A stretch of 64,000 nucleotides of DNA. Source: Candidatus Bathyarchaeota archaeon (GTDB lineage Archaea > Thermoproteota > Bathyarchaeia > Bathyarchaeales > Bathycorpusculaceae). Location of the stretch: contig CAWDYC010000004.1 of assembly GCA_963806535.1 (NCBI GenBank), positions 128,001 through 192,000 of the forward strand, given 5' to 3'. Under the pieces are notes generated by a model. That model worked only from the letters and a program-made list of their open reading frames with translations, ran no database searches and was not told the DNA's origin. Of this stretch, positions 9,038-40,794 are shown one piece after another; position 1 is the first letter of the stretch, and every line of letters begins with the position of its first letter. A program made the position numbers and the translations under genes.

Positions 9038-9146
9038 GGAGAGGCTGAGAGGGCTCTGGTGATCATGGGTCAATTTGGTTTTGCTCATGAAAGATTTGCA
9101 TTTTCTTATCTTCCTTAGGTTTGTCCAGAGCCTCAGCAAACTTTCT
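9038..9146 (+). ncRNA. BHB-motif structured RNA, copy 1
   Basis: GGAGAG/CTTTCT outer stem, GCTG/CAGC helix, AGA and AAA bulges, GGGCTCTGG/CCAGAGCCT inner stem; TTTATAT at ~8993. Confidence 0.72.
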
Positions 9147-9392
9147 AAAAGGATAAAGCCAAGGCCAATAAATTTTTGTTAATAGCGCGTGTGACTGTTA
9201 CGTGTTTAAGATTTTGAATTAATCTTCAATGATATGCATAATTATCTAATAAATGCATTTTAATTAAGCAATAAGTGTATTAACATTAATAATGATTCTT
9301 AGAGAAAGGTTGAATGCAAAGATTTTATAACTTACTGGCTTATACTTCTTGACTAAGGCAAGTGAGCTTAGCACTTGTCAGAGAGAGATGTG

Positions 9393-9502
9393 AGGGGCTG
9401 AGCAGGCTTTGGTTAAAATCATTAAATCGCGGATGTTTCGGGAAATTCGGCTCTCTTATCCCTAAGTTCTTCCTTCAATTGTCCAAAGCCTCAGCAAACC
9501 CT
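9393..9502 (+). ncRNA. BHB-motif structured RNA, copy 2
   Basis: AGGG/CCCT, GCTG/CAGC, AGC and AAA bulges, AGGCTTTGG/CCAAAGCCT; TTTTATAA at 9323-9330. Confidence 0.72.
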
Positions 9503-9863
9503 GAACAATAAGAGACTTTCAAAAAATTTTATCAGAGACATTTAGAATGTGAAATCTGGTGAAATTCTAGTATAAATCGGAAAATTGTTTATTTTCACTA
9601 AAGGAACATAAGACTTTTAAGTGAAAGTAGTGCTTGCAGTTTCCTCTTATTATTTCTTCCTTAGGCTGCACGCTTTACTTCCCCATATTAATTCAATTTC
9701 AATTTTGTGATTTTCACTCCGGAAACTTTTATTTTTGTCCCTATAAGACTGATATCCCTAATTCTTGCAAGGTTTTATTACCAAGTTAGTTACAATTAGA
9801 TTTTTTGTTGGACGAGATCATCAAACTTCTTGCCCGATATAAACCTAAGGAAGAAAAAGAAAA

Positions 9864-9940
9864 ATGAAAATGTTAAGAGAAAAGATATTAGCTTAGCTGT
9901 TGCGGCAATTCTGCTCTTCTATCTACGGCTATTTCGATTG
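9864..9940 (+). pseudogene. 5' remnant of a secreted-protein gene (signal-peptide-like start only)
   Basis: Purine-rich leader then MKMLREKILA and, after a shift, LAVAAILL; no continuing ORF. Confidence 0.4.
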
Positions 9941-10070
9941 GATGAATTCTGAATCAGATTGACCTAAGTTAGTAGATACGAAAATGATTGTCCTTTAAAA
10001 GGATTTGAATAAATGATAAGAACTCTTAAAAAAACACAAGAACGTTAGAGTTAATTGAAGAAAATTAATG

Positions 10071-10162
10071 TTAAGCGGATTTAGCCAAGTGCTAAACAAC
10101 AGGCAAAGTGTAAAACTCAAGAGGGGCACACTTCACCTCAGATAGCAGCCGAACCCGCTTAA
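10071..10162 (-). ncRNA. long irregular hairpin, candidate ncRNA
   Basis: TTAAGCGGG/TCCGCTTAA, TGCTA/TAGCA, AGGTGAAGTGTG/TACACTTTGCCT; G-U pairs work on the minus strand; TTTTATAT upstream at ~10217-10224. Confidence 0.45.
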
Positions 10163-10393
10163 GCAATCACTGGCTCTTAGCTTTTTTCGTTGTTAAAGAG
10201 ACTACGATTTAAGAGAATATAAAACAATGTTGTCTCAAATTGAACCAACAACTCTATTCCTTGACCTCGCCAAAAGAGGATTGAAAAAGATTTATGCGGG
10301 CTGTAGTGAGAGGCGTAATTGAGTTTTAGTCCGGTTATTTTACACATTTTGTTTGCGCAAAATAATTAAACAGTTTTGCACTATTAGAAATTC

Positions 10394-10822
10394 ATGACCA
10401 ACAACAAATTTACCCCTGAACTTGTTGCGCCTTGCGGAATGAATTGTGCCATTTGCAGAGCTTACGTCTCTTATACACATGGGGTACCGCGGGTAAGAGG
10501 GAAAATAACATATTGCGCCGGCTGCGTTCCCAGAGCCAAAAACTGCTACATCAAACGAGGCTGTAAAAAACTTTCCAAACACCAATTCCAATCCTGCAGC
10601 GAATGCGACACTATGCCCTGTGAAAAACTTGCTCATCTCGACAAACGTTACCGCGAACGCTATGACATGAGCATGGTAGAAAACCTAAAACTGCTGAAAG
10701 CCAAGGGCATGGCTGAATTCCTTAAGAGTCAAACACAAAAGTACACTTGCCCAAACTGCGAGGATGTAATTTGTGTGCATGATGCAAAATGCTTAGCATG
10801 TGGCTACAAAAGAAAAGCCTAA
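10394..10822 (+). CDS. DUF3795-like Cys-rich protein
   Basis: VAPCGMNCAIC...CAGC...C.IK.GC...CSEC..PC plus C-terminal CxxC pairs. Confidence 0.8.
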   Translation: MTNNKFTPELVAPCGMNCAICRAYVSYTHGVPRVRGKITYCAGCVPRAKNCYIKRGCKKLSKHQFQSCSECDTMPCEKLAHLDKRYRERYDMSMVENLKLLKAKGMAEFLKSQTQKYTCPNCEDVICVHDAKCLACGYKRKA

Positions 10823-11204
10823 GTCACCATACTTTTCAACAATTTCTCTAATTATATTCATGTTTCGAGTTGTAGCTTTTAACTTCAGTTTTGACTCAAT
10901 AAACGGATTGGGTAACGCTCCTTCTCCACCACCATGGGTTTCACTGAAAACTTCCGTACCTTTGGATGAGATTACTTGAGCGGTTGATTTTGGAATTGTT
11001 GTTGGCAATTCGATTGGAAATTTTGTTGAGGTATTTGCAAGAAAAGTGACTAGAAAGCTTGTGTCTTCTTTGTTTTGTTTCTTGAAGGGTTCACTGTTCA
11101 ATTATTTTTTCAAGCTGAGTGATTGTGCGGATAAATACAGCTACATTGTAGCCCAATGTCTCTTGAAGTTTAATCTCTATTTTCTTTTTTGATTTCTTCA
11201 ACAT
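10793..11204 (-). CDS. hypothetical protein (frameshifted; boundaries approximate)
   Basis: ORF track fragment plus upstream coding-like frame from ATG 11204. Confidence 0.4.
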
Positions 11205-11358
11205 TTCCAGGGTCAATTTCAAAAATTACGTTGCCGCTCTGTTTATAGGTGGAAATTTTTTGAAAGCCCAAAGAAGTGAAGGTTTCTTGCAGCTTCTCTT
11301 TTTTAACAAAGTGTCCGCCAACATTGATTCCTCTTAAGGAAAGCTACAAAACGAGGCA

Positions 11359-12269
11359 TTATTTCATCAGTTTTAGCATTATTGCTTTAGCCGAGTATAA
11401 TCGGTTTTCTGCCTGCTCATAAATCACCGACTTCGGACTCTCAATGGCTTCAGCGCTTATTTCGTACCCGCGGTGAATCGGCATGTCATGCATAATGTAG
11501 GCGTCGCTTCCTTTGAGTAGTTCAGCGTTGATTTGGTAGGGCATCATAAGTTTAATCCGCTTCTCCTTCTCCGCCGCAAATTTGGGGTCAGTGAAAAACT
11601 CCATATCAATCCATGTGTCAGTGTAAACAAAATCTGCCTCTTTAACGGCTTTTTTTGCATCTAAAGTTGATTGCCAAAGCCCAGTTTTGTTGGCTTCAGC
11701 CAGCATCTCTTCATCTCGTGCTGCTTCATTAAAAATCGGGGTAACCGTTGTTATTTTGACTCCTGTTTTTGTGCAGCCCTCAATTAGCGAGTTGCAAACA
11801 TTGTTGTGAACACCAATGTAAACCAGTTTAGCGCCTTTAAGAGTGCCCTTTTTCTCTTTTATGGTGATTAAGTCAGCTAATGGCTTGGCTTGGATGATAC
11901 TTCTCGTCGCAACCGTTGATTACTGGAACACGCGATGCTTTAGCCATCTTCAACAAATCCGTGTCATAAAGCAATCTAGCCATGATGCAGTCAACATTAC
12001 GCGATAAATACTGAATCTCATCGGTTATGTCTGCCATCGTGAAGTTGGTTGTTCGCCAATCAATAAATAAGCCATGACCGCCAAGCTGAGTAGCTGCAAC
12101 CTCAAAAGAAACCCTTGTCCGAGTGGAAGTTTTCTGAAAAATCAAGGCAGATGATTTACCCTCAAACGCTTTACTAGTATTTTTTGGGGTTGTGCTTAAC
12201 TTCGATGCCTAAATCAACCAATGCATTAAGCTCTTGGCTGGATAATTCTTTGAAATTAATCAGATGCAT
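11359..12269 (-). CDS. argF: ornithine carbamoyltransferase (frameshifted)
   Basis: FQKTSTRTRVSF, HPSQA, YTDTW, HDMP.HRG.E, QAENR. Confidence 0.9.
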
Positions 12270-12364
12270 CTATCTTTGCCTTCCAGATACGCTGACGAGC
12301 CAGCAATTATAAGCTTTATGGAAACCCTTTTCACTCAAATCATACACAATAAGACTGAACCAGC

Positions 12365-13197
12365 ATGATTCTCCTCGTAGCCTCAAAAAAAGACATTGCA
12401 AGCCTAAACATCAAAAAGCAAATCCTAAAGCACTATCCCTTTAAAAAAACTTCTCAAAACCTTCCAAGAAAACTCCATCTACAACGCGAATTTAAACGGC
12501 AAAGACATCATGCTTGTAACTTTGAACCAGGAATCTGTTAATGCACAAAATCTGCCTGAATGTTTTCCCAATTCAGAAATAATCGTCTTTATCTCAAGGC
12601 ATAGCAGTGCAAGTGGCAGACCAACATTGTCTGTTCACACGCCTGGAAACTTTGATGAAGCAGGGCTAGGCGGCTTGCCAAAAACTCGTCTCAGTTTCTC
12701 CTGCAAAAGCCATGAGCGACGCCTTAAAAGCGCTTTTACACTATAAAGAAGAGTTAAGCCTTGACTATGAAGTGTCATATGAGGTCACTCATCATGGTCC
12801 AAGCCTAAATGTGCCCGCGATGTTTGTTGAGTTAGGCAGCTCAGAGAAGCAATGGAGAGATTCTAAGGCTGCAGAAGCTGTTGCTCACTCAGCGATGCAT
12901 GCAATAGCTAATTTTTCAAAACCTGCTAACTCTTGCTCGGCGGTTCTAGGCATCGGTGGAACGCATTATAATCAGAAATTTACGTGCATGGCTTTGGTCG
13001 GAGAAGCTATTTTCGGTCACATGATACCTAAACATGCTGTTTGCAAAATTGATTCAGAAATGTTATTGCAATGCAGGACGAAGACTTTTGAGAAGGTTTC
13101 GCTGGCCATTCTTGATTGGAAAGGAATCAAAAGCGAAGACAAACCAAAACTTTTGTCTGCTCTGCAGGATGTGGGGTTGCCTTTCAAGAAAGTTTAA
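12365..13197 (+). CDS. dtdA: D-aminoacyl-tRNA deacylase, archaeal DTD2 type (frameshifted)
   Basis: SRHSS, SVHTPGN, EVTHHGPS, FVELGS, GIGGTHY, GHMIPK. Confidence 0.92.
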
Positions 13198-13299
13198 TGC
13201 GTTATAACAAGCTTTAAAAGGTTAATTATGGTTGCTTTTAAACTCTAAGTTACAGTAACGTTTATTATTCATAAATGAAATCTTGAGTGTGCGATAAGT

Positions 13300-13500
13300 A
13301 TGGGAATAAAATCTTGGCTACAGCAAGCAGCAAGAACTTTAAAGTTAGCTGTTAAACCTGGAAGAGAGGAGCTGTGGCTATCAATAAAAATTAGCCTTTT
13401 AGGCATAGGTGCAGTTGGTTTAATTGGTTTCGTTATTAAACTTTTATCCTATGCTGTAGGCGGCGCGGCTTCACCGGCATCACCGACACCAACACCTTAG
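13300..13500 (+). CDS. secE: protein translocase SecE/Sec61-gamma
   Basis: RTLKLAVKPGREE...TM GLIGFVI; located before spt5. Confidence 0.9.
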   Translation: MGIKSWLQQAARTLKLAVKPGREELWLSIKISLLGIGAVGLIGFVIKLLSYAVGGAASPASPTPTP

Positions 13501-13514
13501 AAGGAAACTTATTT

Positions 13515-13985
13515 ATGGACAAGAAAGAAGAGCAAAGACAAGTAAAAATTTTCGTTGTCAAAACAACAACTGGGCAAGAACGCAACGTTGCAAGATTGAT
13601 TGCGTCAAAAGTTGAAATGAACCATATTCCAATAAAAGCTCTTCTTGTACCCGACACATTGAAAGGCTACGTGTTTGTTGAAGCTGATGGACCACATCTT
13701 GTGGAAGAAGCAATCACAGGCTTAAGGCATGTGCGATCCAGAATCCCTGGGCTCGTAAGCTTTGCCGAAATAGAACGGTACATCGTCCGAAAACCAGTCA
13801 TGGAAGACCTCAACGAAGATGACGTCGTCGAAATTACTGGTGGACCATTCAAAGGTATGCGTGCAAAAATCACAAGACTTGACAAGTCAAAAGGCGAAGT
13901 TACCCTCGAACTGCTTGAGGCAACATTCACTTTGCCAATCACAGTACATTCAGATTATGTAAAACTAGTAGAGAAAGCAAAATAA
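13515..13985 (+). CDS. spt5: transcription elongation factor Spt5
   Basis: KTTTGQE, KGYVFVEA, KOW motif VEITGGPFKG. Confidence 0.96.
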   Translation: MDKKEEQRQVKIFVVKTTTGQERNVARLIASKVEMNHIPIKALLVPDTLKGYVFVEADGPHLVEEAITGLRHVRSRIPGLVSFAEIERYIVRKPVMEDLNEDDVVEITGGPFKGMRAKITRLDKSKGEVTLELLEATFTLPITVHSDYVKLVEKAK

Positions 13986-13998
13986 TTGGTGAAATGAT

Positions 13999-14487
13999 AT
14001 GGGAGAGAAAAAAGTTGTAGAATTGCTCGTAAATGGAGGACAAGCCAATGCAGGTCCACCATTAGGTCCTGCTTTAGGTCCATTAGGTCTAAACGTTATG
14101 GCTGTCGTCACTAAAATTAACGAGCTTACCAAAGACTATGCTGGAATGAAGGTTCCAGTAAAAATCACCGCTGATACAGAGGATAAAAGCTTCGAGGTTT
14201 CCGTTGGCACTCCAACCGCTTCAGCTTTAATCGTTGCTGAATTGAAAATTGAGAAAGGCTCAGGAACACCTAACACTGTTAAAGTAGGCAACTTGTCTAT
14301 GGAACAGATGGTGAGAATAGCCAAAATTAAGGGTCCTCAGCTTTTATCGCCAACTCTCAAGAAAGCAACAAAAGAAATGCTTGGAACCTGCGTTAGCTTA
14401 GGCGTCACTGTTGAAGGAAAAGACCCCCGTGAAGTCCAAAAAGAAATTGATGCTGGCACCTACGAGTCGCTATTTGGTACTGAATAA
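13999..14487 (+). CDS. rpl11: 50S ribosomal protein L11
   Basis: [18 protein letters not shown]. Confidence 0.97.
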
Positions 14488-14545
14488 TGATAAGCGAATA
14501 TTTTTATAATCGATTTCCAATCCCTCATTGGCACGAGGCTTAAAA

Positions 14546-15197
14546 ATGCCCCTAGACAACAAGACAATATTAGAAGCAATTAAACAGGCAAAGGCGAAGT
14601 CTGGCGACAAAAAATTCAACCAGACCGTAGATATGATCTTAGATATCATGGAGATCGATATGAAGTCGCCAGAAGGCAAAATCCAAGAGGTTGTTGAGCT
14701 TCCTCACGATACTGGAAAGCCAAACAAGGTTTGTGTTATTGCTTCTGGAGAATTTGCAATGAAAGCAAAAAACGCGCAAGCTGAATATGTTATTGAACGT
14801 GCTGATTTAGACGCGTTAAATGGCAAAAAGAAAGAATTACGAAAGCTTGCCAGCGCAATATGATGTTTTCATTTCTGAAGCTCCGTTAATGCCGCTTGTC
14901 GGTAGGATTCTTGGTCCAGTTTTGGGTCCAAGAGGAAAGATGCCTATTCCTGTTGCACCTAATGCGGACATTGCAGCTCTCATTAAGAAGCATCGTAAAA
15001 CGGTGGTTGTGAGAATGCGTAACCAACCGATTATTCAGGTTTCCGTTGGTACTCAACAGATGAAGGATGAAGAGCTTGTCGATAACACAATGGCTGTTCT
15101 TCGTGTTTTAGATGGAAAACTCAAGCGTGGCTTGAAAAACGTAAAGTACGCTTTCTTCAAGACATCTATGGGTGAACCAGTAAAAATTAAACCTTAA
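14546..15197 (+). CDS. rpl1: 50S ribosomal protein L1 (1-bp frameshift)
   Basis: KFNQTVD, LGPVLGPRGKMP, KTSMG. Confidence 0.95.
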
Positions 15198-15213
15198 CAA
15201 GAGAAGAGAAATT

Positions 15214-16081
15214 ATGCCGTCCCAACAAGTATTAGAAGAAAAATCAACTGAAGTAGAAGCAATAAAGGACATACTGAAAGAACATAAATCCATAGGCATC
15301 GCTAGCCTGAAAAAGGTTCGTGCTTCCCAACTTCAAGAACTAAAGAAAAGCATGGCTGGCAAAGTTTACCTACGCGTGTTAAAGAACACATTAATGCGGA
15401 TAGCTATTGAAGAAATGAATCAAGCAGACTTAAAAAAGCTTGAAGTGTACTTGGATGGCTCAAACGTTTACTTGTTCTCAGACATAAACCCTTTCAAACT
15501 AGCTTTAATGCTGGAAAGAGGCAAAGTAAAAACAACCGCCAAATCAGGCGACATAGCTGCCATGGACGTAATTGTTCCAGCAGGCAACACTGCTCAACCT
15601 CCAGGCCCAATCATTAGCCAACTAAACGGCGTTGGTCTACCAACAAGAATCGAATCAGGCAGCGTCTGGGTCAGCAAAGATACATTGGTCGTTCGCAGAG
15701 GAGAAGTAATCAGCGAACAACTCGCAGGTGTTCTCTCAAAACTTGGAATTAAAGCGGTTGAACTCGGTATTTCGATGCGAGCGGTTTTTGATAATGGCTT
15801 AATGATTACCGGTGACCAACTCAAAGTTGACGTTGATGCGACACGAAAAAGCGTTGAACAAAGCAACCAAGAAGCTTTCGCCTTAGCAATGGAAATCTCT
15901 TATACAACCAAAGAAACAATCAAGCCACTACTTGCAGAGTGCACATCAAAAGGCTCTTGCGTTAGCCGTTAGTGCTGCGATACCTACCAAAGAAACAATT
16001 GGCGACTTAATCCGAAAAGCAAACATGGAAATGACAAGTCTAATCGGTGCAGTCGACAAAGCCAAGCCAAAAGCAGCCTAA
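15214..16081 (+). CDS. rpl10: 50S ribosomal protein L10/P0 (frameshift near 3' end)
   Basis: VLKNTL, PAGNTAQPPGP, LSKLGIK; corrected end ...DKAKPKAA*. Confidence 0.95.
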
Positions 16082-16215
16082 TAATATCTCTCTTTTTAGT
16101 TTATTATTTCTCAAAACTAGGACTTCTCAGCTGGGGCTTCAATTTCATGTCTTAGTTTTGATAAGGCTTAATAGTTTCTTACGTCGTGTACATTTAAATT
16201 ATAATGTGACTAGCC

Positions 16216-17505
16216 ATGGTTGATGTTTGGCTTCCCTACGGAAAAACCGACGTGTGTGTACGAGTTCCAGCCCGAAACCTTCTTGGAACAATCGAACCTG
16301 TAGACTGGTCAGGTGTACCAGATCCCAAAGTTGAAGTTGAGAGAGCTCTAAAAAATCCCATCCCAGTTGGTTCCAAACGTTTGAGCGAAATTGCTAAAGC
16401 TGAAAGCAAAGTCGCAATAGTTGTTGACGACGCAACACGCAAAGCGCCAAACGAATTGATGCTTTTACCAGTACTCGCCGAGTTAAGCCTAGCTGGCGTA
16501 AAAGACGAGAATATCACAATTATTTTTGGTTGCGGAACGCATCGGGCAGTTAAACCTGAAGAAGCGACAGCAATTCTTGGCGTAGAAATAACCAAGCGAA
16601 TAAAAGCTGTTAGTCACGATTGCAAAGCGCAAGATTTGGTTAACATAGGGACGACGAAAACACATGGCAACAAAGTGTACGTTAACCGCGTTTTTGCTGA
16701 GGCAGATGTGCGTGTGCTTTTGGGTGATGTTGGTTTTCACTATTATGCAGGTTACGGCGGTGGCAGAAAAAGCGTTTTACCCGCAGTTAGCGGAGAAGAA
16801 ACCATCAAACATAACCATTCAATGCTTCTGCATGCTAACGCCCGAAGCGGCAACTTGGCTGAGAACCCTGTGCATCAGGACATGACTGAAGGGGCAAGAT
16901 TAGCCAAAGTTGACTTCATTGTTAACACCGTTGAAAATAAGAAAGGTGAAATCGTAAAGGCATTCGCCGGAGATTTAGAGCAGGCTTTTTCTGAAGCTGT
17001 AAAACTTGTTGACGAAATGTTTCGTGTAACTGTGGAACGCCGGGCTGACATCTTAGTTGTGAGTGCGGGCGGATATCCAGCGGACATAAACCTCTATCAA
17101 GCTTACAAAGCCTTAGACAACTCTCTAGACGCGGTCAAACGGGGAGGAGTAATAATTCTTGTCGCTGAATGCACCGAAGGTCATGGAAATCAGGTGTTCT
17201 ACGATTGGATGACGCGTTTGGGTGATTTGAAGAATGTCGAGCATGAAATAAAACGCAACTTTGTCATGGGCGGACACAAAGCCTATTACCTCCTAAAAGC
17301 CCTGCAAAACCACCAAATTATCCTTGTCTCTTCCATGCCCGATTACTATGCCACAAGCATATTCAAACTCAAAACAGCTCGGGCAGTAAACGATGCTTTA
17401 ACCGAAGCGCTAAAAATTGCTGGTTCAGCCTCAAGGGTCTGGGCAATGCCACATGGCAGCTACACATTGCCAGTGTTTAAGGCTCCAGACGAAACAAATA
17501 CTTAG
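16216..17505 (+). CDS. larA: nickel-dependent lactate racemase LarA family
   Basis: DDATR, GCGTHR, HYYAGYGGGRKS, GGYPADINLYQA.K. Confidence 0.88.
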   Translation: MVDVWLPYGKTDVCVRVPARNLLGTIEPVDWSGVPDPKVEVERALKNPIPVGSKRLSEIAKAESKVAIVVDDATRKAPNELMLLPVLAELSLAGVKDENITIIFGCGTHRAVKPEEATAILGVEITKRIKAVSHDCKAQDLVNIGTTKTHGNKVYVNRVFAEADVRVLLGDVGFHYYAGYGGGRKSVLPAVSGEETIKHNHSMLLHANARSGNLAENPVHQDMTEGARLAKVDFIVNTVENKKGEIVKAFAGDLEQAFSEAVKLVDEMFRVTVERRADILVVSAGGYPADINLYQAYKALDNSLDAVKRGGVIILVAECTEGHGNQVFYDWMTRLGDLKNVEHEIKRNFVMGGHKAYYLLKALQNHQIILVSSMPDYYATSIFKLKTARAVNDALTEALKIAGSASRVWAMPHGSYTLPVFKAPDETNT

Positions 17506-17595
17506 ACAACTTGCAATAATCCCAAAGCAACTAATTGAACATAAAGCGCAAACTTTAAGTTTAAACAGTGAAATGTGGATAAAGAAGGCGTCAAA

Positions 17596-18072: not shown

Positions 18073-18207
18073 GCAAAAATAGAATATAAAATGACGTAAG
18101 CGTTATTTTCTTGATGGTTTTTCTATTCAAAAACAAAAACTAAACGGACAAGCAACACAACTTCTTTAAAATGCTGAATGCATAATTAGTTTTGAGGAAT
18201 CAAGTTT

Positions 18208-19532: not shown

Positions 19533-19540
19533 AAACAAAC

Positions 19541-24798: not shown

Positions 24799-24831
24799 AA
24801 CATGATAATCAATTCAAAGGTGAATTATTAG

Positions 24832-32164: not shown

Positions 32165-32565
32165 TATTTAGCCTGAAGAAAATACAAGAGCGAAATTATT
32201 TAAGCATTCCACCATTTCCATTTCGCTTAATTGCAGCAACCTTCAGAACTGCAAGAAATATGAAAAAGCGAGTCTCTAAGTAAAAAACATAAACAATAAA
32301 AACAACGAAAGACGTATTATTAGTAGGCAAAGGCAAACAAAATCATTGACGAAAAATTGGGTAACTTTAATTTAAACAAACGGAACCCAACCAAATGCGC
32401 TCCTTAAATTTCGTCGAAGATCAGAAGAAATGGATGAGCAACTGTTTCTAAAGTTAGGAGCCGAGGGTTCAAATCAAAACTCGCGCCATAGTCACCCCCA
32501 CCAATTAAACCAATAAACTCGTAATAATTTGCTTTTGTCAATCTATGGAAATGGTGGAGTAAAAA

Positions 32566-32931
32566 ATGGCGAAAAAACCTCATGTATCTTCAATGTTTAG
32601 GAGAGCAGTATCAAATATATTTGTGGAACCAGCAACAACAAAATATCCATTTTCGAAACCCAAAGTGGCCGATGGTTTTCGAGGTCAACCAATATTTGAT
32701 TCTAAGCTTTGTGTCGGCTGCGGCTTATGCAGAAAAGATTGCCCAGCGAACGCAATAGAAATGGTTATGGTCAACGGAAAAAAATATCCTCAAGTGAATT
32801 TGGGTAGATGTATATTTTGCTATACATGCGCAGAAGGCTGCCCCAAAAAAGCTATTACGTGTTCAGACTTCTTTGAGTTAGCGACAACTGATAAATCCTC
32901 ATTGATTATGAAGCCTCTGCTGGTTGTTTAG
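32566..32931 (+). CDS. NuoI/EchF-like 2x[4Fe-4S] protein
   Basis: ATTKYP...GFRG, two CxxCxxCxxxCP motifs. Confidence 0.85.
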   Translation: MAKKPHVSSMFRRAVSNIFVEPATTKYPFSKPKVADGFRGQPIFDSKLCVGCGLCRKDCPANAIEMVMVNGKKYPQVNLGRCIFCYTCAEGCPKKAITCSDFFELATTDKSSLIMKPLLVV

Positions 32932-33018
32932 AAGAAGCTCAAGTGGCTAACTGCTCAATTTAACTCCTTTTTTTATAATTAATCAGGCGGTCCTATCTGT
33001 GAATCTCTTTGATACCCA

Positions 33019-34308
33019 TTATTTTTCCATTATTAAGCCTTTAAGATAAGTCGCAGAAGCCTCTACAACTTTAACTTTCAAGGTTTTTCCCAGAAGATTA
33101 TCAGACCTTTTTACCACAACCGGTTTGTAAGCAAAGTTGCGTCCAACCCATGAGCCGTCCACCTTGCCCTTCTCGTCAAACAGCACTTCACCAATCCATC
33201 CGACCCAAAGCTGATTCCGCTCCGAAGAAATTCGCCTAACCAACTCTGCGGCTACACTGCTTCTCCGCTTAATTTCCTCGCGATCAACTAAACCATTTTT
33301 AATCTTCGCCGCAGCGGTTTTGGGTCGAGTAAAAAACTTTGAAACATTGGTAACATCAGGCTTAACTTCTTCCAAGAGTTTGAGCGTGTTTTCAAAGGCT
33401 TGGTCTGTTTCGCCTGGAAATCCCACGATTACATCGGTAGCAAGTGTCAAGTTAGGAAACTCCGCCCTGAATGCGTCCACAATGCTCTTGAATTGTTGAG
33501 TAGTGTAAAACCTGTACATACGCTTCAAAGTTTCGTCATCGCCGCTTTGCACCGGTAAATGCAAAAATTTGAAAATTTTATCGTTCTTAAAAGCGTTAAT
33601 CAGCTTATCCTGCATGTCAGTTACCATGTTTGGCGTCATCATACCAACCCGGACTTTGAAATCGCCAGGTAGATCGCCCAGCGCTACAAGCAGCTCTGCG
33701 AGGTTAGATTGAATTTCTCTTCCATAACAGGCTGTGTCTTGAGAAGTTATCCAAAACTCTTTGGTGCCCGATACAAAATCACTCTGCACTCGCTTTGATA
33801 CTTCATTTATGCTGTAGCTTCGTAGATGTCCTCGGGCAAAAACAACACAACAGTATGCACAGGACCCAAGACATCCGTAATTCACTGGAACTACGCTGAT
33901 AATCGGGTTAGTCTTTACTCTTGGAAGATCTAGATGTGGTTTACAATTTAGGCTAGATAATTCCACAACTCTCTCGCCAGCATAAACGCGGGAAACAATG
34001 TCTATGATTCCGCTGCCTACCGATGGACCGACTGCGCCGTCAAAACACACTTCCCGGGTTAGCCGTTCAAAACTAATTATAGGCAGACAACCTGCTACGA
34101 TGAGTTTCTTGCCTTTTGGAGCATGTTTCATAGCGTTGATTATGCGGTTTTCTGTTGGGCCTTTAACTGCGCATGTGTTATAGATTAACACGTCAGCGTC
34201 TGATTCTGAATCTGCAAGTTTGAAGCCAGCTTGGGCTAGGCATCCTGCCAGGACTTCGCTGTCTGCTATATTGGCTGAGCATCCGAAGTTTCTAATGAAA
34301 ATCTGCAA
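33019..34308 (-). CDS. mtaB: tRNA t6A37 methylthiotransferase (MtaB/CDKAL1 type)
   Basis: GCSAN, NTCAVK, GCLGSCAYC, HLPVQSG, C-terminal TRAM. Confidence 0.9.
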   Translation of the reverse strand: MQIFIRNFGCSANIADSEVLAGCLAQAGFKLADSESDADVLIYNTCAVKGPTENRIINAMKHAPKGKKLIVAGCLPIISFERLTREVCFDGAVGPSVGSGIIDIVSRVYAGERVVELSSLNCKPHLDLPRVKTNPIISVVPVNYGCLGSCAYCCVVFARGHLRSYSINEVSKRVQSDFVSGTKEFWITSQDTACYGREIQSNLAELLVALGDLPGDFKVRVGMMTPNMVTDMQDKLINAFKNDKIFKFLHLPVQSGDDETLKRMYRFYTTQQFKSIVDAFRAEFPNLTLATDVIVGFPGETDQAFENTLKLLEEVKPDVTNVSKFFTRPKTAAAKIKNGLVDREEIKRRSSVAAELVRRISSERNQLWVGWIGEVLFDEKGKVDGSWVGRNFAYKPVVVKRSDNLLGKTLKVKVVEASATYLKGLIMEK

Positions 34309-34452
34309 AGCCCATGAATCACCGGTTTGTAAGAAGCTTCAACAAGAGATAAAAACTTAAAGGTTCCTTAGCGAAAATTGACAAAAACCTGCAACGATGT
34401 TCATTAAAGGCTTATATGCTAAGGTATGAACATGTTATAAGCATATTTGTAG

Positions 34453-34478
34453 CATATTATATAGGTGTATATAATATG
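34453..34478. promoter_or_regulatory. perfect 11-bp inverted repeat, probable operator
   Basis: CATATTATATA-ggtg-TATATAATATG ~45 nt upstream of the RHH gene. Confidence 0.6.
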
Positions 34479-34522
34479 AGAACTTGTTTAATTATTCAAT
34501 CACAAATTAGGAGCGATAACTC

Positions 34523-34678
34523 TTGAAGATGATTACTCTGTATTTACCTGAAACATATATAAAAGCTTTGGACCAGCTTGTCGACGAAAGGTTCTATCCG
34601 AACCGCGCCGAAGCAATCCGAGTCGCTGTTCGAGACTTGATCAGTGCAGAAGTTTGGAGGCGAAAAGGCGTTGACTAA
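34523..34678 (+). CDS. CdrS-like ribbon-helix-helix regulator (below ORF-track cutoff)
   Basis: MKMITLYLPETYIKALDQLVDERFYPNRAEAIRVAVRDLI; AGGAG RBS. Confidence 0.85.
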   Translation: MKMITLYLPETYIKALDQLVDERFYPNRAEAIRVAVRDLISAEVWRRKGVD

Positions 34679-34958
34679 ACATTTACATGAAGACACCCTA
34701 AAACCGCTAGGCATTGAAGACTTGAAGATTGAGGTTCTTCCAAAAACCATCGACCACTCAATGGTAATAGGCGGTGGGCAAATTGTCCGTAAACCTAAAA
34801 ACAAAATGAAAGTAAGGATGGTAAAATCTAAAATGCCCGTTAGAAAAACTAGCCGATTAGACAAAGCCACGAATCAACTATACGACCTTGAAGATGCTCA
34901 CGGACCTGAAAAACCATTAAACATCGACTTCGGGCTCTACCAAATGGAAGACTATTAG
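34671..34958 (+). CDS. 95-aa protein overlapping the RHH gene stop; possible FtsZ-tail remnant
   Basis: TTG start overlapping the RHH stop; ends LYDLEDAHGPEKPLNIDFGLYQMEDY. Confidence 0.6.
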   Translation: MTKHLHEDTLKPLGIEDLKIEVLPKTIDHSMVIGGGQIVRKPKNKMKVRMVKSKMPVRKTSRLDKATNQLYDLEDAHGPEKPLNIDFGLYQMEDY

Positions 34959-35036
34959 CAAACACCTTTCTTATTTTTTGTATCTTTTGGTATTTTTTAG
35001 TAAAGCTATTATTCTCAAAAAACTGTTTTTACCAGC

Positions 35037-35747
35037 ATGAGCAGTATCCTTGCACAAATAAGAAAAGAACTAAAAGCCAACACCGACCTTCAAACGCAAA
35101 AAAGTTTTCAACGTTTCTTTAAGGAACAAGTAAAGTATTACGGCGTTAAAACCCAAACAGTCGGTAAAATCGCAAAGAAATATTGGAAACAAGTAGAGAC
35201 GTTGAATAAACAAGAAATTTTTGCTCTTTGCGAAGAACTTTACCGTTCAGACTACACTGAAGAAGCGTTTGTTGTTGCTTTTTGGTTACCAAACTACATC
35301 TATCATCTAAAACCAAGCGACTTGACGGTTTTTAAAGGATGGATTGAACGGTACATAAACAACTGGGCTAAATGCGACGGTTTCTGCAACCATACAGTCG
35401 GCGACTTAATCCAAAAATACCCGGAAGTTTTAAACGAAACAAAACGCTGGGCGAAATCTGAGAATCGTTGGCTTAAACGGGCTGCGGCTGTTTCACTTAT
35501 TGTTCCCGCAAAAAAAGGTTGTTTCCTGCAAGACTCCCTCGAAATTTGTGACCAATTACTCACTGACGGCGACGATATGGTACAGAAAGGTTATGGGTGG
35601 TTACTCAAAGAAGAAAGCAGACTGCATCAAAAAGAAATCTTCAACTATATTGTGAAAAACAAAAAGGTCATGCCTCGAACCGCATTGAGATACGCCATTG
35701 AGTTAATGCCAAAGGACCTTAAGACAGAAGCAATGAAAAAAGACTAA
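35037..35747 (+). CDS. AlkD-family DNA alkylation repair protein
   Basis: YGVK, INNWAKCD, WLKRAA, DMVQKGYGWLLKE, RTALRYAIE. Confidence 0.9.
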   Translation: MSSILAQIRKELKANTDLQTQKSFQRFFKEQVKYYGVKTQTVGKIAKKYWKQVETLNKQEIFALCEELYRSDYTEEAFVVAFWLPNYIYHLKPSDLTVFKGWIERYINNWAKCDGFCNHTVGDLIQKYPEVLNETKRWAKSENRWLKRAAAVSLIVPAKKGCFLQDSLEICDQLLTDGDDMVQKGYGWLLKEESRLHQKEIFNYIVKNKKVMPRTALRYAIELMPKDLKTEAMKKD

Positions 35748-35757
35748 ATTTTCCTAT

Positions 35758-36888
35758 TTATATTTTCGATGGTCCAGTTGTCCAGCCTGGAGCAACCTTT
35801 TTGCGCAAAATAATCACTTGAATGTGTCCAATAATTATTATTGCCATCCAAATTGTTGAATAGAAAAAGTAGTAAACGAAGAATTCATGAATTTTCATTT
35901 CGCGGAATCCCAATTTTCGCGAGAAAGCGTAAAAAACGCCTGCAGTTATGGCGAAGCCTGATAGAGAAATTACTAAGATTTTTATCATGTCTGCAGTTCC
36001 TAGTGAAACAAGAAAAATTGGTAACATGATGTTGAATTTAACTGATAGAAACAGTGAAAAAACAAGCAGTGAATTATACATCCAAAGGCTTGGAACTAAT
36101 GCGGTTATGAAGAAAATTGCGACTGAAGGATAAAGGAAGAACAAGCCTGGCAGGAAAACTTGCGGTTTCTTCACAAATTTCTTTGCTAAAGTGCGATACC
36201 AACAAACTAGCCATGAGGCTTGTCCTATTGCCCATCTTCTACGTTGAGTAAGCCATTTTCCCCAGTCAGAGTAAACAACGTTTTTTACTTCAACGTCGGA
36301 TGAATAAGCGAAACTACTATCTTCCAAGAAAGCTCTTGTTGCTAAATCAATGTCTTCGGCAATAACTCTGTGAAAGCCTCCGACTTTCTCAAAAGTTTCT
36401 CGTTTAATCGCAAATGCTGCGCCGTTTACTGCTGGACATTTGTGAAGGTATTTTGACGATAACCAGGCGCTAACGTTATAGGTGAAGTATTCATAATAAG
36501 CCATTTTAGATAGGAGCGATTTTCCTTTTATTACTCTCTTTTTTATGTCAACAATATCTGCAGTGTGCGTTTCCATAATTATTTTTCTCAAAAAATCTGG
36601 GTCGCCACTAATTTGTACATCAGAATCAAGAAAAAGTAACACTTGACTTGATGATAATTTTACTGTGCTGTTTACTGCGTTTGCTTTGCCGATGCGTTCT
36701 TTATTCACTATGAATTTAACGTTCTCGTTCTCGAGACTTTTAATTTTTTGCGAAAATTCTTCAGTTGGCGCGTCAACTGTTACGAAGATTTCTTTTGCAA
36801 CATTTTGGGAATTTAGCTCATTCAGCATGCTTGCTAGTTGATTTGATTCCCTGTAGACCGGGATAAAGATGCTAACGTCTACTGTCAA
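35758..36888 (-). CDS. GT2 glycosyltransferase with C-terminal TMs
   Basis: IPVY, GKANA, DSD, AED, QRRRW. Confidence 0.9.
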   Translation of the reverse strand: MTVDVSIFIPVYRESNQLASMLNELNSQNVAKEIFVTVDAPTEEFSQKIKSLENENVKFIVNKERIGKANAVNSTVKLSSSQVLLFLDSDVQISGDPDFLRKIIMETHTADIVDIKKRVIKGKSLLSKMAYYEYFTYNVSAWLSSKYLHKCPAVNGAAFAIKRETFEKVGGFHRVIAEDIDLATRAFLEDSSFAYSSDVEVKNVVYSDWGKWLTQRRRWAIGQASWLVCWYRTLAKKFVKKPQVFLPGLFFLYPSVAIFFITALVPSLWMYNSLLVFSLFLSVKFNIMLPIFLVSLGTADMIKILVISLSGFAITAGVFYAFSRKLGFREMKIHEFFVYYFFYSTIWMAIIIIGHIQVIILRKKVAPGWTTGPSKI

Positions 36889-37065
36889 ACCGCAATCCTC
36901 ATTAGTAAGTAATTATCAATATTAAATTTTCAAATGGGTTTTTAAATCATTCTAGAAAAAAGGGACAAATTAAGCTGCTTAATGTTGGAAAACTGGAGAA
37001 ATCAGCTTATTCCTCTAGCTTTATAGGAAAATTATTATTTATCGCAAAAGAATCCTTTTTGCGAT

Positions 37066-38070
37066 ATGACACACGCTAAGGCTATAAGTTTGCTTTCTGG
37101 CGGCTTAGACAGCATACTTGCAACAGAACTTATTCGTTCACAAGGAATTGAAGTAGTAGCCTTTAACGTTAAAACTCCCTTCTGCATCCCCAAAAAAGAC
37201 GGAACCAGCGAAGCAATCGAAGCCGCAAACCAACTTAAAATTCCATTAAAAGTTGTCAATGTTGGAAAAGATTATTTGCAAATGCTCAGAAACCCAAAGT
37301 ATGGTTACGGCAAAAACATGAACCCCTGCATTGACTGCAAAATCTTCATGATAAGAAAAGCCAAAAAATATGCAAAAGAGATTGGGGCTGACTTTCTTTT
37401 CACAGGCGAAGTGCTTGGCGAAAGACCAAAATCGCAGCATGGACCTGCCTTGAAGATTATTGAGGAAGAGGCTGGTTTGAAGGGTAAACTTCTAAGACCT
37501 CTTTCAGCGAAACTGCTCCGTGAAACAAAAGCCGAAAGAAAAGGCTTAGTTGATAGAGCCAAATTATGCAATATTCAAGGACGCTCAAGAAAACCCCAGT
37601 TCCAACTTGCACGTGAATTCGGAATTAAAAGTTTTCCCGCACCGGCTGGCGGATGCTTGCTGACCTGTGAGGAATACGCAAAGAAGCTTAGAGACTTATT
37701 CTCCTAATAAGAAACGAATTTCAATGTCTGATGTCGCTTTGCTGAGAATTGGCAGACACTTTAGGTTGGGTAAAAACAAAATTATTGTTGGAAGAAACGA
37801 AGTCTGAAAACAAGCTTTTAACTGCTGGGAAAATACGTGGTGATTTCTATTTTGAGTTGCCCGATATTGTTGGTCCTACTAACAATTTTGCAGGGACCTA
37901 AAACAAAGAGTGCCATTGAGACCGCGGCGAAGTTAACTGCGTTTTATTCCGATGCGAAAGTCGCTGAGGTTAAGGTTAATTTTGGCAGAGAAGCTTTCAA
38001 CAAATCCCTTATGGTAGCCGTACCAGAAAAGGCTGAAGTGGATAGATTAAGAGTTGGCAACGTGAAGTAA
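37066..38070 (+). CDS. ThiI-like PP-loop tRNA thiolase (frameshifted)
   Basis: SGGLDS, NPCIDCK, TGEVLGERPKSQ, PAGGCLLT, GRHFRL...IVGRN. Confidence 0.85.
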
Positions 38071-38164
38071 ACTATCTCTTTAGATATTGTTAATTAAGAG
38101 AGAGTGGTTGTAAGGCAAAAACTTATCCATTAAACGTTACCTAATAGACAACTAGGGTAAGAAG

Positions 38165-38982
38165 TTGACTATTGAATCTAACAGAACTTTAGGTGGAGTA
38201 GGCTGCCATTTTAATGCTAATAGGCGTTGTCAGCCAAGCATCTACTGGCTTTTGGATACCTTTTTCCTCAATCAACTGGGGCCTTGATATTAGCCGGCAT
38301 AGGCGGTTTATTTGGGATTTTGTCTTTTGTTGGTTTTCTACTATTCTTAGTAGCAATGTATGGTTTCTCCAAAGACTACCAAGAGCACAGAATTTTCAGT
38401 TATTTGTTATACGGGATCATAATTACAATTGTAGCTGCTGTGATTCTTGTCGCAATTTTGGTTATAGTTATTTTGTTTAATGTTGCTACCCTTTTTCCAA
38501 ACTTAAGCTCCTCAGCTTCCTCGTCAACTCAAATATCTTCCGAAATGTCAAAAATCTTCAGTTTAATTTTTCCTTTGTTTAGCCTTGTTGGAATAATTTG
38601 GATAGCGTTTAATGTCAAGGCTTTCAATTTGCTATCAGATAAGTCCAATGTACCTCTGTTTAGAACTGGAGCTAAAGTGCTCATCGCCGGCGCATTAGTG
38701 AACATTGCAATTGCAATAATATTTGCTGTCGTTGGCTCTTATGTTGCAGTATCGCTTAACACTCTGCTAGCCCTTCTGATTATTGGAAGTTTGGTGCAGG
38801 ATGTTGCTTGGGTGCTTTTTGCAATGGCGTATTTCAGAATACAAGCGCCCGCTGTTCCAATACAAGCGGTGCCACCCGTTAGTAGTGCACCCGTTTCTGG
38901 ACAAGTGAAATTCTGCACTTACTGTGGAGCACCGAACCCAATGGATGCAACCTACTGCACTCGATGTGGACAAAAGCTATAG
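38165..38982 (+). CDS. DUF996-like membrane protein with C-terminal zinc ribbon (frameshift near start)
   Basis: MTIESNRTLGGVG start, multi-TM, FCTYCG...YCTRCG. Confidence 0.75.
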
Positions 38983-38988
38983 TCAAAT

Positions 38989-39303
38989 TTAGTAGTGCAG
39001 TTGCTTTTCTGGCGGAAACAGAAACTTGCGTCTGGTAAAGAACAATACTGTGAAAACGACAAAGAAAACGGCGCCTAAAACTAAATATATAATTCCGTCA
39101 GTGACCTCTTGACCAGCAGTCGTTTCACTAAAGTGAACATACGGATTCGTATGGTCGATAACAACGCCGGTTAACCCATCTGACAATCTCCAAGAACCAA
39201 TTATTAATAATGCCATTCCCCCAATAACCAGCAAGGCAACTGCTACAAGGCCCAAAGGAGTCGGACCCTTGTGAGAATGAGGGAAAGTTGACATGGACAT
39301 CAA
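38989..39303 (-). CDS. two-TM hypothetical protein
   Basis: ORF track. Confidence 0.55.
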   Translation of the reverse strand: MMSMSTFPHSHKGPTPLGLVAVALLVIGGMALLIIGSWRLSDGLTGVVIDHTNPYVHFSETTAGQEVTDGIIYLVLGAVFFVVFTVLFFTRRKFLFPPEKQLHY

Positions 39304-39421
39304 TTGCAGTTTTTAACTTATAAATTTAGCTCAGTCGAACGATTGGCTAAGATATAGCGATAAACGTAAGGCCAAAAGGGTAAAATTATATTTGTTAGTG
39401 TTTCATTATGATGCCCGATAA

Positions 39422-39499
39422 GGGCCCGTGGCGCAGTACGGATAGCGCGTCAGCCTTCTAAGCTGAAAGTCATGGGTTCAAATCCCATCGGGCCCGCCA
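39422..39499 (+). tRNA. tRNA-Arg(TCT), CCA encoded, no intron
   Basis: GGGCCCG/CGGGCCC acceptor, TCAGC-CTTCTAA-GCTGA anticodon arm, GGTTCAAATCC T-arm. Confidence 0.97.
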
Positions 39500-39689
39500 G
39501 AACCCTTTTCTCTTGAAAAGGCTTCACCGAAAACTCGGTGTTTTGGGTGTTGCGGTTGCTTAGTGCTTCTATACAGTCTTTTAACGTGTTTTCTGCGATT
39601 TTTGAGACATTTAAGCCGAGAGAATGCGCCTGATCATACACTGTTTTCGAAATATTCAAGGTAACTCTAACTTTGTCAGATTTAGACGT
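39450..39689 (-). pseudogene. N-terminal fragment of att-split (SSV-type) integrase with RHH/CcdA-like start
   Basis: KVRVTLNISKTVYDQAHSLGLNVSKIAENTL read into att peptide LAGPMGFEPMTFSLE; start codon appears as ACG. Confidence 0.6.
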
Positions 39690-40507
39690 ATTTATACACC
39701 CTTTTTGATTTTTTGATTCAAATGTGGATTGAGCATTAAGAAAATCTTAGGATTTTTGTGTTCGATCGCCACAGAAAAATAAAGAGGATCATTCGGGTTA
39801 GTTTCATCGATCCAGGTGTATGCTTTTCTGATCCACTCTGGTTCTTTTCCGTCAACGGCAATGCCGTTATCAGGATCTTTCATAAAATTCTCAATAAAGC
39901 GAAAAGCATTAAATTTCCCAAGCTGCGCGTCAGTAAAATTAATGTTTTCTGGATTAATCTCATAGACTTGTTTTCCGTTTTCGTCAATGATTTTGTTAGT
40001 TGAATTATAAGGTTGAAAGAATTGTACTGCTTCAGAGAATCTTAGACCGGTAATTGCTATAAAATCCATGAAAAGACAGTATTCAGGCCTTGCGTCTTTT
40101 ACCTCTAGGATCCACTGGAAGACGTCCTCTGGATTATCAGTTCTATTCAAACGGTCAATAATAATATCGTCAGCGCTTCTACCGGCCCAGGTTAAACCAT
40201 AATTCTTAATCAACTTAAGATAGCCTTCATAACAACCTAGAAACTTAGCTAAAGCGCTATAGAGACTGCAAGAACTTTTGACTGCATACTCTTAGGCAGC
40301 TGAGTGATTGTGAAAGATCGCTTGATAATAGACAACTTGAATACTTGAAAGCTGAATTGAAAACCTGAGACTCCCATCGAGAACTAAACTCTCTATTCTT
40401 AAGATATTTGCCAAAAGAAACCCAATCTATACCCTTTTCGCCTAAAGAACCTTTTAAATCGGCTTCTAAGCTGAAAGTCATGGGTTCAAATCCCATCGGG
40501 CCCGCCA
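39455..40507. mobile_element. collapsed integrated element bounded by 45-bp att repeats (tRNA-Arg 3' half)
   Basis: CTTCTAAGCTGAAAGTCATGGGTTCAAATCCCATCGGGCCCGCCA at 39455-39499 and 40463-40507. Confidence 0.9.
39692..40507 (-). pseudogene. C-terminal fragment of tyrosine integrase, truncated after the first catalytic Arg
   Basis: IDWVSFGKYL...SALAKFLG.Y...FIAITGLRFSEA; no HxxR or Tyr box visible afterwards. Confidence 0.72.
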
Positions 40508-40695
40508 ACGTTTCAAGATTGATTGAATTCGAATTAATTTTACTCTTCACTCACGATAGGTGAGAGTCACTTAAGTATCGTGTGATAAAAATAATGTTTG
40601 ATTGAGTGAGAACACTATGGATTCTTGCTCAAATCAGAAGATTGAAGAAAAGCAAAATTAATGTTGCTATAAATACAGCAGCATTTGGGAAGAAT

Positions 40696-40794
40696 AGGGG
40701 CTGAGAAGGCTCTAAATTAGATTCACAATATAACTATAGTTGAAGATTTTGCATTTTCTTCTCCTATAAAGTTTGCAGAGCCTCAGCATACCCT
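40696..40794 (+). ncRNA. BHB-motif structured RNA, copy 3
   Basis: AGGG/CCCT, GCTG/CAGC, AGA and ATA bulges, AGGCTCT/AGAGCCT; TATAAATA at ~40668-40675. Confidence 0.72.

Follow-up and report, generated by a model that had tools for sequence, protein, structure and literature searches.

Cutting at motifs of the bulge-helix-bulge (BHB) type is known for several kinds of RNA, and these are the closest described systems to the three elements studied here, E1, E2 and E3, which lie in a window of 64,000 nucleotides (nt) of a Candidatus Bathyarchaeota genome (window G000:C4:128001-192000; genome G000, 2.95 Mb, 41% G+C). Metazoan tRNA intronic circular RNAs (tricRNAs) are outlined in PMC6614914 as introns that are excised at a BHB and circularized by RtcB. 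BHB introns were also described in the cbf5 mRNA of Crenarchaeota and in the 5' untranslated region (UTR) of HVO_1309 in Haloferax volcanii, the latter being cut by recombinant endonuclease and recovered as circular RNA, and the account in PMC7714728 gives just these two single mRNA introns as substrates of the archaeal splicing endonuclease beyond tRNA and rRNA. Circular pre-16S and pre-23S rRNA intermediates and the permuted signal recognition particle (SRP) RNA of Thermoproteus are treated in parts of PMC4731332, PMC12918454 and bioRxiv 2025.04.27.650855. Two further systems resemble the elements in other respects, namely sRNA162 of Methanosarcina mazei, introduced in PMC3510493 as a trans-acting small RNA (sRNA) that masks ribosome-binding sites, and the circular isoforms of the IS200/IS605 omega RNA in Halobacterium, at whose circles PMC12558985 reports finding no BHB.

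The elements share with archaeal tRNA introns the helix-BHB-helix (hBHBh') geometry and the predicted cut positions, as seen in the tRNA-Met intron of this genome, and as in tRNA introns and tricRNAs the excised piece would be the circular product. However they are not in a tRNA, their flanking 'exons' have no evident function, and they occur in at least 16 copies with an invariant central helix and an antisense cargo. They are like the cbf5 and HVO_1309 introns in having a BHB outside tRNA and rRNA. Those are single loci within an mRNA or 5' UTR, and the account in PMC7714728 attaches no known role to the excised piece, whereas the elements are multi-copy and lie past a stop codon and a terminator tract or alone, and their predicted excised piece carries conserved information. 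As in the circular pre-rRNAs and the permuted SRP RNA, so far as the parts of the sources cited above describe them, a BHB frames the RNA, and EndA and a ligase, as predicted for the elements, release or rearrange it; the 16S BHB of this genome even has the same handedness as the elements. These RNAs are housekeeping RNAs with one locus each, while the elements are an antisense family. Many bacterial sRNAs mask ribosome-binding sites in trans, and the elements share with such RNAs a pyrimidine-rich, anti-Shine-Dalgarno-like single strand and complementarity to the start codon region of the target mRNAs. We know of no ribosome-binding-site-masking sRNA with a BHB frame, and the antisense part of the elements differs in being a homologous inverted copy of the 5' end of the target family that is physically linked to it. 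The elements also resemble the Halobacterium omega RNA circles as a non-housekeeping archaeal class tied to a repeated gene, the circularity being predicted in our case, but the cargo and the associated protein are unrelated. Literature searches on BHB, circular RNA and noncoding RNA of Bathyarchaeia, covering main texts (supplements may hold archaeal cases), found no BHB-framed antisense family. Our analysis suggests that the elements combine two known kinds of RNA, BHB-processed RNAs and ribosome-binding-site-masking antisense RNAs, with the biochemical steps being predicted.

A BHB-framed RNA family in one clade of Bathyarchaeia

E1, E2 and E3 belong to a family of structured plus-strand RNAs with a BHB frame, covarying stems, linkage to surface-protein genes and antisense homology to the starts of these genes, in a genome that encodes the processing enzymes. 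The gene linkage and the antisense interior are two features missed by an earlier note on this stretch, which had proposed three free-standing BHB RNAs. We propose that the elements are BHB-framed RNAs that mask the starts of the surface-protein paralogues in trans and are probably excised by EndA and ligated by RtcB, a reading that we hold tentatively, with confidence just short of even. Their transcription, cleavage, ligation and regulatory effect we infer from sequence.

Six copies in the genome were picked up by a regular expression and served, with the 3-4-3 structure, to build a covariance model. The model has 19 matches with E<=1 in the same genome, 16 of them with E<=2.5e-5, and ten of these 16 clear copies are outside the seed (E 4.8e-15 to 2.5e-5). 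In loci of other genomes it matches 107 times. A set of 60 relatives gave matches, up to 23 per genome, in 28 of the 36 genomes of the same genus and in two of the three genomes of a second family, and gave none in the 21 that represent ten further families of the order. In a class-wide draw, ten of 151 genomes match at E<=1e-4, covering 5 of 79 genera in two families of one order. A scan with the exact pattern, using one genome per species, hit nearly only metagenome-assembled genomes of Candidatus Bathyarchaeota or Bathyarchaeia, from peat, fen, bog and soil; three bacterial or Vulcanisaeta matches to the pattern were not confirmed by the covariance model. The elements are a family found in one clade of Bathyarchaeia only. 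Across the family the RNA is ~105-135 nt long. Same-strand tandem pairs recur, mostly ~130-170 nt apart (e.g. C4:51745/51877, G013:C3:48595/48726 and G192:C15:7267/7418), and the pair E1/E2 (window 9038/9393) is 355 nt apart.

The BHB frame is supported by covariation. We analyzed a model-fitted alignment of the 107 matches with 103 distinct rows, in which 94.9% of the cells are paired and 13 of the 17 pairs have changed on both sides. None of 500 shuffles reaches any of the observed pair measures, and the pairing falls to 23-60% in controls with slid partners. The inner helix is 98% paired with all nine pairs covarying, and the outer helix is 83% paired with all four pairs changed on both sides, being strong only in the two to three pairs next to the bulge. 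The pattern by which many of the sequences were fetched fixes the arms, but it does not inflate the covariation of the outer stem or of the distal part of the inner stem. G-U pairs outnumber A-C pairs in the inner helix (40 vs 9), which indicates that the selected molecule is the plus-strand RNA. The central helix GCUG/CAGC is invariant, with Watson-Crick pairs in 398 of 400 cells, and of 101 distinct copies 100 show exactly 3-4-3 geometry, many of the copies having been fetched by the arm-fixing pattern. At the 5' bulge 66 copies have AGA, 25 AGU, 7 AAA, 2 AGC and 1 AAU, and at the 3' bulge 94 of 101 have AAA. RNAalifold favours a slipped register of 5 bp, GCUGA/UCAGC. The canonical register of 4 bp is the better one, since the first inner pair (AU in 78 sequences, GU in 13, GC in 10 and another in 1) includes ten G-C cases that the slipped register could not accommodate.

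Two genuine BHBs of this genome have their parts arranged in the same order as the elements. The tRNA-Met intron has a CUCA/UGAG helix with bulges UAA and AUA, and the 16S processing stem has a CUCC/GGAG helix with bulges AAA and CAA. In tRNA-Met each exon-intron boundary comes just behind nucleotide 2 of the bulge. EndA is encoded as two paralogues, with two matches to PF01974 in frames of 198 aa and 184 aa (regions C4:534789-535031 and C8:78712-78966), and so is RtcB (PF01139), in two adjoining frames. These RtcB frames (G000:C3:346685-347996) cover model positions 1-335 and 335-426 separately, which a frameshift, a fault of the assembly or a split gene could explain. The pattern of the predicted circle junctions has 0 matches in assembled metagenome contigs, which are probably assemblies of DNA and thus uninformative either way, and a relaxed junction pattern has four chance matches in the same contigs, in unrelated coding-like DNA with no element nearby.

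Much of what the earlier note had read from the letters therefore stands. The sequence of all three elements reads as it claimed, and the minimum-free-energy folds recover the stems and both 3-nt bulges, the fold energies being unexceptional against shuffles (z -1.4, -0.2 and -1.6 for E1, E2 and E3). The invariant central helix with its 3-nt bulges and the covarying inner and outer stems, which it had drawn from three copies, extend to the family. Its placement of each bulge 3' of its helix strand agrees with the tRNA-Met intron and the 16S stem, and the cut after the second bulge nucleotide that it took as established fits the tRNA-Met boundaries. A TATA-like box is indeed present upstream of all three elements and resembles the boxes of the tRNA genes, which in this genome are of the AAAGnTTTATA type; the free-standing copy C9:51936 likewise has a box of the tRNA-gene kind. 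The elements were also said to lie outside any tRNA, rRNA or open reading frame (ORF). In the window, Rfam at gathering thresholds finds only two tRNAs, both away from the elements; the mechanical ORFs 8999-9139(-) and 9362-9511(+) overlap E1 and E2, and minus-strand frames over the elements are not conserved across the copies. No described family was recognized then, and we likewise find no Rfam match, with permissive E-values giving only sub-threshold noise over E1, E2 and a fourth copy, E4. The covariance-model search that the note proposed is the one given above for this genome and other Bathyarchaeia, and it recovered further copies.

Linkage to surface-protein genes and an interior antisense to their starts

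The earlier note called the elements free-standing, and this does not hold for most copies. Of the 18 copies in this genome, 10 follow a same-strand gene of one family, 52-63 nt past its stop codon. The count rises to 12 with a second copy in tandem and one whose gene is disrupted, and the remaining six, E1, E2 and E3 among them, lack a family gene upstream. Among copies from other genomes, 80 of the 94 usable ones are behind a family gene and 14 are not, and seven others have too little flank. The typical gap between stop codon and element is ~55 nt. The upstream genes encode paralogues of ~900 aa that are 34-63% identical, with a signal peptide, weak matches to pyrroloquinoline quinone (PQQ)-like beta-propeller and immunoglobulin (Ig)-like domains, and a C-terminal membrane anchor. 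The genome has ~23 loci of this family, many of them broken, and conservation of the 3' flanks extends to paralogues with just ~35% protein identity. A conserved CUUUCCCCUUUUUUAGUC-like tract lies between the stop codon and the element, centred ~29 nt before the outer stem, and a run of T>=5 is found at most 80 nt upstream in 99 of 112 copies. This tract could be the terminator of the gene, the TATA-like box of the element, or both.

A further claim, that the elements are dedicated genes, finds support in E1, which looks like an independent gene, and most copies of the family are gene-linked. The orthologue of E1 lies in synteny in a different species (G013:C6:71119-71236), where its promoter-box stretch of 20 nt is kept in 19/20 positions, the 5' arm in 21/23, and the part from the anti-Shine-Dalgarno (anti-SD) tract through the 3' arm in 48/50. 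The leader and the flanks have diverged, one G-U of the outer stem is an A-U there, and the T5 run ~30 nt downstream has been retained. This is the pattern expected of an independent small gene. For E2 the syntenic region of G013 holds no counterpart, and for E3 none turned up in the related loci that came with its region, where the intergenic DNA is too diverged to define empty-site boundaries.

The interior of the elements, ~55-80 nt long across the family and ~55-70 nt in E1, E2 and E3, has features that recur across the copies: a variable first hairpin, a second hairpin with a covarying stem and the loop UUUGCAUUU, and a single-stranded tract, UCUUUUCUCCU. The reverse complement of its 3' half reads as a ribosome-binding-site-like sequence followed by AUG, and the interior corresponds, in reverse complement, to the translation-initiation region of the surface-protein family, i.e. 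the Shine-Dalgarno (SD) sequence, spacer, AUG and first codons. In antisense alignment to the family starts, most elements score 3-6 standard deviations (sd) over shuffles (range 1.7-9 sd, n=13). The scores are 26.1 vs 18.2 +/- 1.6 for E4, 22.6 vs 17.0 +/- 1.6 for E1, 22.2 vs 15.6 +/- 1.5 for E3 and 18.7 vs 14.8 +/- 1.3 for E2, and the sense-orientation scores (13-16) are not above shuffles. The reverse complement of the E1 tract agrees with the start region of C11:180050 in 25 of 28 columns. The homology extends into the coding region, where a conserved CGCGG, present in many elements, is the complement of ACC-GCG in signal-peptide codons.

A genome-wide blastn-short search with 18 interiors points the same way. 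It gives 16 matches with E<=0.01 outside the elements, and seven of them are antisense to true family starts (C7:156054, C4:74035, C11:200855 and C10:56097). Three are antisense matches of 30-31 nt to a relic of a family start in the window (9841-9870; 87-90% identity, E 7e-4 to 3e-3), three fall on an inverted element relic (C4:46089-46130, with ATG changed to ACG) and three on a degenerate same-sense element at C4:44513; there are none elsewhere in 2.9 Mb. The first of these decayed element copies lacks the stems, and the second is a partial copy (C4:44479-44554) behind the gene C4:41715-44432.

The SD and ATG on the minus strand are kept in 75 of 101 copies. The frames that follow encode 1-60 aa, apart from five that continue past the end of the retrieved sequence, and they share no conserved protein among the 101 copies, so that the conservation is at the nucleotide level, as expected of a pairing surface. 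A small minus-strand ORF was dropped as a reading for this reason. For the nine gene-linked elements with an intact gene, the start of their own upstream gene is never the best match (0/9), with own-gene scores of 7-11 vs a best score per element of 11-33; any action would therefore be in trans.

Between G000 and G052 elements and gene starts also change together. In G052, a genome of the second family (genus g16), the gene starts have the sequence GAAGGUGAAAAAAUGAAAAAA and the elements UUUUUUCAUUUUUUCACCUUC, with a perfectly complementary stretch of 22 nt; the start regions have GAAGGUGA and A-rich spacers, and the elements have matching UCACCUUC and U runs. The best scores in the two directions of the comparison are 18.1 and 16.6 within the genome, 14.6 and 11.0 across the genomes, and 12.1 and 7.8 in the sense controls. 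A re-harvest of this comparison gave 17.3 vs 14.3. The differences of G052 from G000 in the elements and in the gene starts match each other, and in both directions elements score higher with the starts of their own genome. In a third genus (G211) the antisense score is 12.6 against 6.7 for the sense control, with three of the ten harvested windows being wrong.

Other readings of the sequence were tried and rejected. A purine-rich leader pairing with the inner pyrimidine tract has a mean duplex energy of -11.32 with the own leader, -10.88 across copies (p 0.16) and -11.21 with the reversed leader (p 0.89), a composition effect. K-turn, C/D box and H/ACA motifs were looked for by eye and not found, and Rfam gave nothing. 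An integron attC site was considered from its core motifs and set aside.

Proposed function and competing explanations

In the mechanism that we propose, the plus strand of the element would be transcribed, with a minority of copies, including E1, E2 and E3, using their own TATA box. The heteromeric splicing endonuclease would then cut after the second nucleotide of each bulge, and RtcB would join the ends to give an exonuclease-resistant antisense RNA of ~85-100 nt that may be circular or linear. Its exposed pyrimidine tract and the CAU-containing hairpin loop may pair in trans with the mRNA starts of the paralogues and block their translation initiation, so that the expression of one surface-protein locus would be coupled to the repression of others. 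A more far-reaching version, which we regard as doubtful, has the tRNA-splicing machinery of EndA and RtcB as a dedicated maturation route for natural circular antisense RNAs; every surface-protein locus would have a BHB-caged inverted copy of the family's start region right after its terminator, and the released circles would silence the other paralogues in trans, giving mutually exclusive or hierarchical surface expression; it would be an RNA-level counterpart of antigenic variation at a variable cell surface. If the proposal is right, BHB processing has been recruited to make regulatory RNAs in which the excised piece is the informative part, and the elements would be the first natural circular, or at least BHB-matured, antisense regulators in archaea. 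It would also link an RNA mechanism to a large and fast-evolving surface-protein family of the Bathyarchaeia, an abundant and uncultured lineage of soils and sediments, of whose gene regulation, to our knowledge, essentially nothing is known. From the elements come exact predictions of the cut sites and of the junctions, predictions of the target regions, and a covariance model.

A number of observations weigh against this proposal. The gene-linked copies have no clear TATA box or B recognition element (BRE), and the oligo-T tract may terminate the gene transcript, leaving the transcription of the element uncertain. Archaeal RNA polymerase terminates at oligo-T, and an internal run of T>=5 is present in 45 of 112 elements (T6-7 in all 13 copies of G052), which could stop the polymerase before the 3' arm is made. 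The ranking of targets by the duplex energy of whole interiors gave mixed results and is unspecific: for E3 the start of C11:180050 ranks 3rd of 2705 ORF starts, and the family starts range from rank 3 to ~2650. The individual BLAST matches of E1, E2 and E3 to start regions are weak (E 0.05 to 0.7). As a specific guide the 15-nt pyrimidine tract had to be rejected: the filter used caught only four family starts, these lie unremarkably at the 9th-75th percentile of 584 SD-bearing starts, and its top target matches are mostly other genes. In G211 the elements score 12.6 with their own starts and 12.0 with those of G000, i.e. no tracking, with three of the ten windows mis-harvested. The invariance and geometry counts are inflated, as the loci L034-L100 were fetched by the arm-fixing pattern and the alignment was model-fitted. 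Finally, EndA would recognize its substrate without the near-invariance seen in the letters of the central helix and the bulges, so that the motif may have a further reader.

Two explanations keep the element in the transcript of its gene. It could be a 3' UTR or terminator-proximal structure that stabilizes the mRNA of the surface-protein gene or binds a protein and is never cut by EndA, the BHB-like loops being a protein-binding site and the antisense similarity the leftover of an old inverted duplication of the 5' end. The fixed site ~55 nt past the stop codon in most copies fits this, as do the unspecific duplex energies, and the invariant GCUG/CAGC with A-rich bulges suggests sequence-specific recognition. 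We consider it unlikely because the conserved oligo-T tract separates gene and element, free-standing copies have their own TATA box (kept for E1 in the syntenic orthologue), and the exact 3-4-3 geometry, which is that of the known substrates of this genome, would have to be a coincidence; moreover the sequences complementary to SD and AUG persist across genera and in G052 have changed along with the genes, unlike a decaying relic. A co-transcribed 3' UTR could also pair with the start of its own mRNA in a closed loop and autoregulate translation in cis, as the same-strand position immediately downstream of the gene and the complementarity to family starts would allow. This is improbable given that the own gene start is never the best match (0/9), that the oligo-T tract precedes the element, and that six of the 18 copies here have no upstream family gene.

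The inverted gene 5' ends could act at the level of DNA instead, as sites of recombination or gene conversion that switch or shuffle surface-protein cassettes. The family is large with ~23 loci and many broken members, its 3' flanks are conserved among paralogues of ~35% identity, and the gene islands are bounded by repeats of a tRNA 3' end, all of which would suit such a role. However the G-U excess (40 vs 9) and the compensatory stem changes fit pairing of one RNA strand, the staggered 3-nt bulges are kept exactly, and no link to a recombinase was seen, though none was looked for; we consider this explanation quite improbable. Very improbable in our view is a selfish repeat with terminal inverted repeats, of the type of miniature inverted-repeat transposable elements (MITEs) or of the paired palindromic repeats called REPINs. 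The elements would fit this in being multi-copy with conserved inverted arms around a variable middle, in recurring as tandem pairs 130-170 nt apart and in varying in presence among species. But ~85% of the copies (80/94) sit at one fixed site behind one gene family and are not scattered, and the interiors are old and divergent and yet keep specific motifs and hairpin covariation. The outer stems vary between copies and still pair, and the syntenic orthologue of E1 points to purifying selection on the arms and the anti-SD tract. All four competing explanations thus conflict with one or more of the results given here.

Coordinates and neighbouring observations

Table 1. Positions of the elements E1-E3 and associated features in the 64,000-nt window (cuts and excised pieces are predictions)
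Feature	Position	Strand	Basis or remark
E1, whole BHB-framed element	9038..9146	+	sequence, fold, covariance-model match E 4.7e-18 (seed member), syntenic orthologue
E1 outer stem, GGAGAG / CTTTCT	9038-9043 / 9141-9146	+	sequence
E1 central helix, GCTG / CAGC	9044-9047 / 9134-9137	+	sequence
E1 bulges, AGA and AAA	9048-9050, 9138-9140	+	sequence
E1 inner stem	9051-9059 / 9125-9133	+	sequence
E1 predicted EndA cuts and piece	cuts 9049/9050 and 9139/9140; piece 9050-9139	+	predicted from BHB geometry
E1 promoter box AAACATTTATAT, BRE/TATA-like	8988..8999	+	like boxes 5' of tRNA genes of this genome
E1 antisense tract	9093..9124	+	anti-AUG CAT 9099-9101; anti-SD CTTCC 9110-9114
T5 run, candidate terminator of E1 transcription unit	9173..9177	+	kept in G013 orthologue despite diverged flanks
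E2, BHB-framed element	9393..9502	+	sequence, fold, covariance-model seed member
E2 outer stem, AGGG / CCCT	9393-9396 / 9499-9502	+	sequence
E2 central helix; bulges AGC, AAA	9397-9400 / 9492-9495	+	sequence
E2 inner stem	9404-9412 / 9483-9491	+	sequence
E2 piece from predicted cuts	9403-9497	+	predicted from BHB geometry
E2 promoter-like box AAAGATTTTATAA	9317..9329	+	box type of tRNA promoters; not conserved in G013
E2 anti-SD tract TTCTTCCTTCAATT	9467..9480	+	14-nt perfect complement to start region of C3:338864
E3, BHB-framed element	40696..40794	+	sequence, fold, covariance-model seed member
E3 outer stem, AGGG / CCCT	40696-40699 / 40791-40794	+	sequence
E3 central helix; bulges AGA, ATA	40700-40703 / 40784-40787	+	sequence
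E3 inner stem, just 7 bp	40707-40713 / 40777-40783	+	sequence
E3 piece from predicted cuts	40706-40789	+	predicted from BHB geometry
E3 promoter box GCTATAAATA	40667..40676	+	~25 nt 5' of outer stem; tRNA-gene box type
E3 antisense tract GATTTTGCATTTTCTTCTCCTATAAAG	40745..40771	+	reverse complement aligns to C11:180050 start region
Orphan relic of family gene start	9841..9896	+	SD AAGGAAG, ATG 9864-9866, stop 9894-9896 after 10 codons

The relic of a family start lies ~340 nt past E2, and a shifted signal-peptide remnant follows its stop codon. It shares a 14-nt perfect stretch with the E1 antisense tract, and E1, E2 and the relic lie within ~1.6 kb without long ORFs. The position near E2 and the stretch shared with E1 make the E1-E2 region look like a decayed locus of the surface-protein family.

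Outside the window, islands with surface-protein genes of the family and with elements have repeats of the 3' end of a tRNA at their borders. Three copies of ~22 nt are at G000:C4:37203, 41413 and 52032, and a fuller tRNA-like sequence is at 55602; the pattern looks like serial integration at a tRNA gene. The two tRNAs of the window are tRNA-Arg(TCT) at 39422-39499 and tRNA-Gln(CTG) at 55657-55732, and the minus strand of the former is the sole one-mismatch chance match to the 5' arm pattern. Elsewhere in the genome, tRNA-Trp (G000:C8:168819-168990) holds an intron of 80 nt; the tRNA-Trp intron of other archaea encodes a C/D box guide, according to the part of PMC12558985 that deals with it.

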